A stretch of 727 nucleotides of DNA from Escherichia coli. GTDB taxonomy: Bacteria; Pseudomonadota; Gammaproteobacteria; Enterobacterales; Enterobacteriaceae. The position numbers were made by a program, and so were the translations under genes. Location of the stretch: NCBI RefSeq assembly GCF_003334405.1, contig NZ_QOWM01000055.1. One strand, 5' to 3'. Position 1 is the first letter of the stretch. Each line of letters starts with the position of its first letter. Below the pieces are notes generated by a model. The model ran no database searches. It saw only the letters and a list, made by a program, of their open reading frames with translations, and was not told the DNA's origin. This document shows, piece after piece, positions 1-727 of this stretch.

Positions 1-684
1 ATCACAACTGATGCGATGGGTTGCCAGAAAGATATTGCAGAGAAGATACAAAAACAGGGAGGTGATTATTTATTCGCTGTAAAAGGAAACCAGGGGCGGC
101 TTAATAAAGCCTTTGAGGAAAAATTTCCGCTGAAAGAATTAAATAATCCAGAGCATGACAGTTACGCAATGAGTGAAAAGAGTCACGGCAGAGAAGAAAT
201 CCGTCTTCATATTGTTTGCGATGTCCCTGATGAACTTATTGATTTCACGTTTGAATGGAAAGGGCTGAAGAAATTATGCGTGGCAGTCTCCTTTCGGTCA
301 ATAATAGCAGAACAAAAGAAAGAGCCAGAAATGACGGTCAGATATTATATCAGTTCTGCTGATTTAACCGCAGAAAAGTTCGCCACAGCAATCCGAAACC
401 ACTGGCACGTGGAGAATAAGCTGCACTGGCGTCTGGACGTGGTAATGAATGAAGACGACTGCAAAATAAGAAGAGGAAACGCCGCAGAATTATTTTCAGG
501 GATACGGCACATCGCTATTAATATTTTAACGAATGATAAGGTATTCAAGGCAGGGTTAAGACGTAAGATGCGAAAAGCAGCCATGGATAGAAACTATCTC
601 GCGTCAGTCCTTGCGGGAGCGGGCTTTCGTAATCTTTCCCTGCTTTTTGTACTAAATAATTCGCATTTTATGTTTAAAAATTGA
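1..684 (+). CDS. ISAs1-family (H-repeat-associated) DDE transposase, C-terminal portion; 5'-partial, start codon upstream of window
   Basis: Seen in sequence: frame 1 is open from base 1 (ITTDA precedes the first ATG at 16) to TGA at 682..684, so the ORF runs off the 5' edge. The ATG at 16 is probably an internal Met, since the conserved 'TTDAMGCQ' block straddles it. Established knowledge, from memory: '[15 protein letters not shown]' (second catalytic Asp, codon 10..12) and '[44 protein letters not shown]' (catalytic Glu, codon 412..414) are characteristic of ISAs1/H-rpt transposases (DDE_Tnp_1-type). Full-length homologues are about 375-380 aa, so roughly 150 N-terminal residues are missing from the window. 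Confidence 0.85.
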
Positions 685-727
685 GATATTCCTTATTACC
701 TGAAGCTGTTTTTTATTGCTTATACAT
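1..727 (+). mobile_element. Fragment of an ISAs1-family insertion sequence (H-repeat-like element); right boundary not determinable from this window
   Basis: Inference from the transposase CDS filling 1..684. Elements of this family are about 1.2-1.4 kb with the transposase occupying most of the length, so the right terminal inverted repeat should lie within roughly 50-150 bp of the stop, either in 685..727 or just past the window. The left end is off-window, so the inverted repeat cannot be paired or located. Confidence 0.65.

Follow-up and report, generated by a model that had tools for sequence, protein, structure and literature searches.

An AT-rich tract at the very probable junction of two tandem H-repeat (ISEc1, ISAs1-family) copies in the RhsC locus of Escherichia coli

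The stretch of DNA considered here (the window: 727 nucleotides, analysed whole) corresponds in its best E. coli matches to the junction between ybfL and ybfD in the RhsC locus, starting within the pseudogene ybfL and reaching the spacer ahead of ybfD. Over its whole length it is 99.7% identical to ybfL-ybfD in K-12-like and other E. coli chromosomes, and taken with the H-repeat/ISEc1 array of RhsC (ybfQ/ybfL/ybfD) it represents the same locus and the same junction, at 97-99.7% nucleotide identity. It differs from the best of these matches by a one-base deletion at 615-617 and by a single substitution at position 264. The features that matter for what follows are these:

1-632, plus strand: the 3' two-thirds of an ISAs1-family DDE transposase gene (ISEc1/H-repeat, ybfL-type), equivalent to ISEc1 649-1281 (NF033564, RefSeq, blastn).
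615-617, plus strand: a GGG run that reads GGGG in other copies, a one-base deletion (alignment with 24 other junction loci).
624-642, plus strand: the right terminal inverted repeat (IRR) of the first ISEc1 copy, CTTTCGTAATCTTTCCCTG (repeat pairing and end of inter-copy homology).
643-727, plus strand: the AT-rich 5' non-coding leader of the second tandem copy (ybfD), equivalent to ISEc1 25-109 (blastn at 98.8%, left-end alignment).
682-684, plus strand: the TGA that ends the frameshifted ORF 16-684, inside the leader of the second copy (ORF list).

The translated window ORF matches the ISAs1-family model NF033564 (transpos_ISAs1) at E 2e-59 and 201.3 bits, against a cut-off of 70, with window residues 1-176 aligned to profile positions 141-314, and the product carries the RefSeq name 'ISAs1-like element ISEc1 family transposase'. 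The domain architecture was read on the full-length homologue YhhI, in which PF13808 (DDE_Tnp_1_assoc, E 2e-33) is followed by PF01609 (DDE_Tnp_1, E 2e-29), and of which the window covers the C-terminal DDE part only. The ISEc1 reference copy, yhhI, is exactly 1,291 bp long – which we take to be the published length of H-rpt/ISEc1 – and is bounded by CAGGG...CCCTG, with its ATG at 145 and its stop at 1279-1281. Against this copy, blastn places window 1-642 on ISEc1 649-1291 (97.2% identity) and window 643-727 on ISEc1 25-109 (98.8%), and it is this near-identity to the K-12 H-rpt copies that assigns the window to ISEc1. Complete genomes with related copies number 5,343 of 5,426, with a median of five places per genome. 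We consider it very probable that the window is the head-to-tail junction of two tandem H-repeat copies in the RhsC locus. As such it is an ordinary finding: the element, the locus and the tandem arrangement are already known and annotated in RefSeq. The description of H-rpt and of the tandem H-rpts of RhsC goes back to Zhao et al. (1993, J Bacteriol 175:2799; cited in PMC3032704).

The ends of the element were set by loss of homology between the copies at yhhI (RhsB), at ydcC (RhsE) and in the RhsC array, aligned at both ends. Inter-copy homology starts at CAGGGAAAGATCA... in three independent left ends and stops at ...CGTAATCTTNCCCTG, with unrelated flanks beyond; in yhhI, ydcC, JNE082640, S21EC and the last copy of the array, it is lost right after ...CCCTG, which corresponds to base 642 of the window. 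Judged by this alignment, the first copy (ybfL) ends at base 642. The reverse complement of the 19 bases leading up to that point is CAGGGAAAGATTACGAAAG, and the IRR pairs with the left end CAGGGAAAGATCACGTAAC at 16 of 19 positions in the ybfL copy and at 12-15 of 19 in other copies, so that the left-end partner that the earlier note had expected to find upstream of the window does exist. As the left half of the source copy lies outside the window, the left inverted repeat (IRL) was taken from the near-identical genomes KL53 and MG1655; in the KL53 locus, a repeat search recovered GCAGGGAAAGATCACGTAA (left end) and TTTCGTAATCTTTCCCTGC (right end) as partners over 19 nt, at 89%. By extension, the left end of the first copy, CAGGGAAAGAT / CAGGGAAAGATCACG, would be placed ~650 bp upstream of window base 1. 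By analogy with the family, the 19-bp IRR is the putative site of binding and cleavage by the DDE transposase. It covers the end of the transposase gene, final codons and stop included. The ancestral TAA at 630-632 does lie inside 624-642, as could be expected from the earlier note's remark that the transposase stop of an IS usually falls within or next to its terminal inverted repeat.

That note, made from the letters of the window, had drawn attention to the strong AT-richness of 640-727 and had proposed this region as a candidate right terminus of the IS, in AT-rich DNA after the stop codon. The composition is borne out, with 25% G+C against 43% for 1-624 (by direct computation 0.25 for 640-727 and 0.226 for 644-727, versus 0.428), and the AT-rich string quoted by the note is found at 654-727. 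The G+C profile stays at ~40% along most of the window and drops to 25% in 641-720, and among all 88-nt sliding windows (mean 0.414, sd 0.052) none has a lower value than 640-727, which ties for the minimum at ~3 sd under the mean. The rest of the proposal survives in part. A right terminus does exist here, but it occupies 624-642 and shares only three bases (640-642) with the region proposed. The words 'after the stop codon' need qualifying: the ancestral TAA at 630-632 just precedes the AT-rich tract, whereas the TGA at 682-684 that ends the window's own frame sits inside it.

Could the AT-rich 640-727 nonetheless be the IS right terminus itself, with its inverted repeat lying within it or just downstream? 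The presence of AT-rich DNA directly after the ancestral stop is what speaks for this, but we regard it as extremely improbable considering that the copies named above lose homology after ...CCCTG and continue into unrelated flanks, that the left end pairs with 624-642 and not with a segment beyond 642, where inter-copy homology stops, and that 643-727 is, at 98.8% identity, positions 25-109 of the element – in other words the leader of a second copy, and not the AT-rich end of an IS. AT-richness is a property of the ISEc1 leader in every copy rather than of the IS terminus. The opposite suggestion, that 643-727 has nothing to do with the IS and is flanking or target DNA of the host, or an ordinary regulatory stretch between genes, might be drawn from two observations: RefSeq has no feature over 643-727, and in the genome search matches to the tract alone are listed as 'none'. 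We give it next to no chance: at unrelated loci, these 85 bases are found again, 97-100% identical, ahead of every ISEc1 transposase gene. In a search with 560-727 many genomes match 643-727 alone, and in both of the two such cases that were opened an intact ISEc1 transposase gene starts ~36 bp downstream of the tract.

The tract thus read as the leader of ybfD begins with TTTTTGTACTAAAT directly after ...CCCTG, and the ybfD ATG lies ~36 bases beyond the end of the window. From its position, the leader would presumably carry signals that drive or permit expression of the downstream transposase. When the leader and junction were scanned for promoters and terminators, promoter-like matches were no more numerous than in shuffled sequence, with one weak match at 721-749 extending past the window end, and no terminator was detected between ybfL and ybfD. 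Folded as RNA, the leader has z = +0.98, with no stable structure, and the array as a whole matches no Rfam family at E<=1. A CTCCTTA...TAAGGAG inverted repeat is present at element positions ~119-138 (stretch L003, 6353-6372), its 3' arm coinciding with the transposase Shine-Dalgarno AAGGAG, and in the ybfD copy it lies just past the window end (stretch L002, 4736-4757). By analogy with some other IS, this repeat is a candidate that could occlude the ribosome-binding site in read-through transcripts.

Since the second copy starts at element position 25, with 1-24 missing, it is without a left inverted repeat, and in the reference genomes the ybfD copy also carries an internal deletion of positions 914-1224. 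The absence of the left inverted repeat, together with this deletion, means that the ybfD copy cannot move on its own. The same absence bears on a further reading of the junction. A direct tandem of two copies, in which the join falls exactly after the last base of the right terminus, recalls (IS21)2, (IS30)2 and the circles of the IS3 family (e.g. IS911), and one might see here a reactive IRR-IRL head-to-tail junction of the type found in IS circles and tandem dimers, that is, an active transposition substrate with a junction promoter. Unlike in those systems, the abutting left inverted repeat is deleted here (1-24 missing in this junction, 1-15 in the only other variant found), so that the junction cannot serve as a paired-end substrate; a junction promoter was not detected either. 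In a pattern scan of metagenome contigs and species-representative genomes, no intact IRR-IRL arrangement with a 0-30 base spacer was found, and the IRR-leader pattern returned no junction from the species-representative genomes. Likewise, none of the 20 metagenome matches or of the genome loci examined holds an intact IRR + IRL junction, the metagenomes having yielded two truncated types only. There is, in our judgement, hardly any likelihood that the junction is of the reactive type, and we retain the head-to-tail joining of a complete right end to a truncated second copy.

Members of the ISAs1 family are ~1.2-1.5 kb long, with one ORF and short terminal inverted repeats starting with CAGGG. 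ISEc1 conforms to this description in size, ORF and CAGGG inverted repeats (1,291 bp in the reference copy), and resembles ISAs1 of Aeromonas salmonicida and IS1358 of Vibrio cholerae in its single DDE transposase (PF13808 + PF01609, NF033564), its length of ~1.3 kb, its short CAGGG-starting inverted repeats and a stop codon placed in the IRR. Unlike the family, H-rpt shows no target-site duplication at five contexts. Indeed, a short direct repeat flanking both ends, which the earlier note had suggested looking for, failed to appear: no abutting direct repeats of at least 2 bp were found at the five independent genomic contexts. A short (8-10 bp) target-site duplication is an accessory feature of the ISAs1 family and not a defining one. 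As membership rests on the transposase, it is unaffected by the missing duplications; their absence in old, rearranged copies argues against recent transposition, not against belonging to the family. To our knowledge, no transposition of H-rpt has been reported. That H-rpt transposition has not been observed is also stated in PMC3032704.

How, then, did the tandem array arise? The junction of the window, in which position 1291 is joined to position 25 (1291/25), is found in 1,578 of the 5,426 complete genomes, and 19 contigs from metagenomes have it as well. A second type, 1291/16, is rare by comparison, being known from one contig of a gut metagenome and from E. coli O121 RM8352 (ydcC locus); it reads CCCTG followed directly by AGGAGTTCAC... 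(stretches L008, RM8352, 3067-3107, and L020, 2080-2120), and in RM8352 the transposase genes on either side of it both look intact. At RhsC of K-12 MG1655 there are three H-rpt pieces, namely 1-381 (ybfQ), 1-1291 (ybfL) and 25-913 + 1225-1291 (ybfD), and in this array (stretch L005, 8303-10926) position 381 of ybfQ is joined directly to position 1 of ybfL. All three junctions, 1291/25, 1291/16 and 381/1, have an exact IS terminus on one side. A recent simple tandem duplication was considered as the origin of the array and is not supported, given the divergence of the tandem copies C1, C2 and C3 by 5-7%, which is like that between copies at other loci, and their mosaic identity; the same two observations imply that the array is old or was assembled from different lineages. 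The full RhsC copy (ybfL, 'C2'), compared with the JNE082640 copy, is 99.4% identical over 914-1224 and 94.9% over 25-381. Mosaic identities, segment by segment, among the copies of stretches L002-L008 suggest gene conversion or recombination among H-rpt copies.

The exact termini at all three junctions suggest past transposase-mediated end joining. We could go one step further and speculate that the junctions are fossils of one-ended strand transfer, in which the transposase would have joined a cleaved H-rpt end to a sister or neighbouring copy, preferably in its AT-rich left subterminal region. We hold this idea tentatively and rate it as rather unlikely. Illegitimate recombination would also be compatible with 1291/25, which shows 1-2 bases of microhomology with the right flank of the array. 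If one-ended transfer did take place, it would explain the rise of tandem arrays and would be a sequence-level sign that the supposedly inert H-repeat was once enzymatically active. Exact-terminus junctions do hint at past activity of the transposase in an element for which transposition has not been observed (PMC3032704).

The window adds to this picture a one-base deletion of its own. The run at 615-617 is GGG, and GGGG in the two reference genomes aligned and in all 24 other junction-bearing loci examined; none of the complete E. coli genomes matches 560-727 at 100%. Because the deletion shifts the frame, the ORF bypasses the TAA at 630-632 and ends at the TGA at 682-684, a read-through that extends it by 17 codons. 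The GGG is either a homopolymer sequencing error or a recent pseudogene lesion. Perhaps, one could argue, the deletion is real and the transposase has gained a functionally meaningful 20-residue C-terminal tail in place of the ancestral ...GSGLS. The ORF 16-684 is indeed open in the window, but such a gain of function is highly unlikely: the deletion is unique against the 24 other junction copies and 5,426 genomes, it falls in a homopolymer, as is typical of sequencing error or of recent decay, and in the closest genomes the ybfL copy is already a pseudogene. That is how these reference genomes are annotated; KL53 has an internal stop, in a region of ybfL that falls upstream of the window. The array is a decayed fossil, to which the window adds its private frameshift. 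A 79-aa ORF on the minus strand (345-584), antisense within the transposase gene, is most likely spurious.

The main value of these results lies in annotation: the first element ends at 642, the AT-rich tract belongs to a truncated second copy, and the long ORF running to 684 is best treated as a frameshift artefact or a pseudogene lesion. H-repeat arrays are long-known parts of Rhs loci, and this picture is unchanged. Other H-repeat loci show some variety. In ET12567, a K-12 derivative, ybfL is interrupted at ISEc1 ~425-431 by an IS10-type element annotated as ISVsa5 (stretch L001, 2461-3669). In S21EC (stretch L006, 2481-3771), the ydcC copy of ISEc1 lies between ansP and yddH, with flanks unlike those of MG1655, and no Rhs gene is annotated within the ~5-kb stretch; H-rpt is thus not always accompanied by an Rhs core. 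Directly upstream of ydcC in MG1655 lies yncI (stretch L004, 5594-6218 and 6532-6592), a divergent ISAs1-like pseudogene with 67-77% identity to ISEc1, so that the RhsE locus also bears two ISAs1-type elements in tandem orientation.
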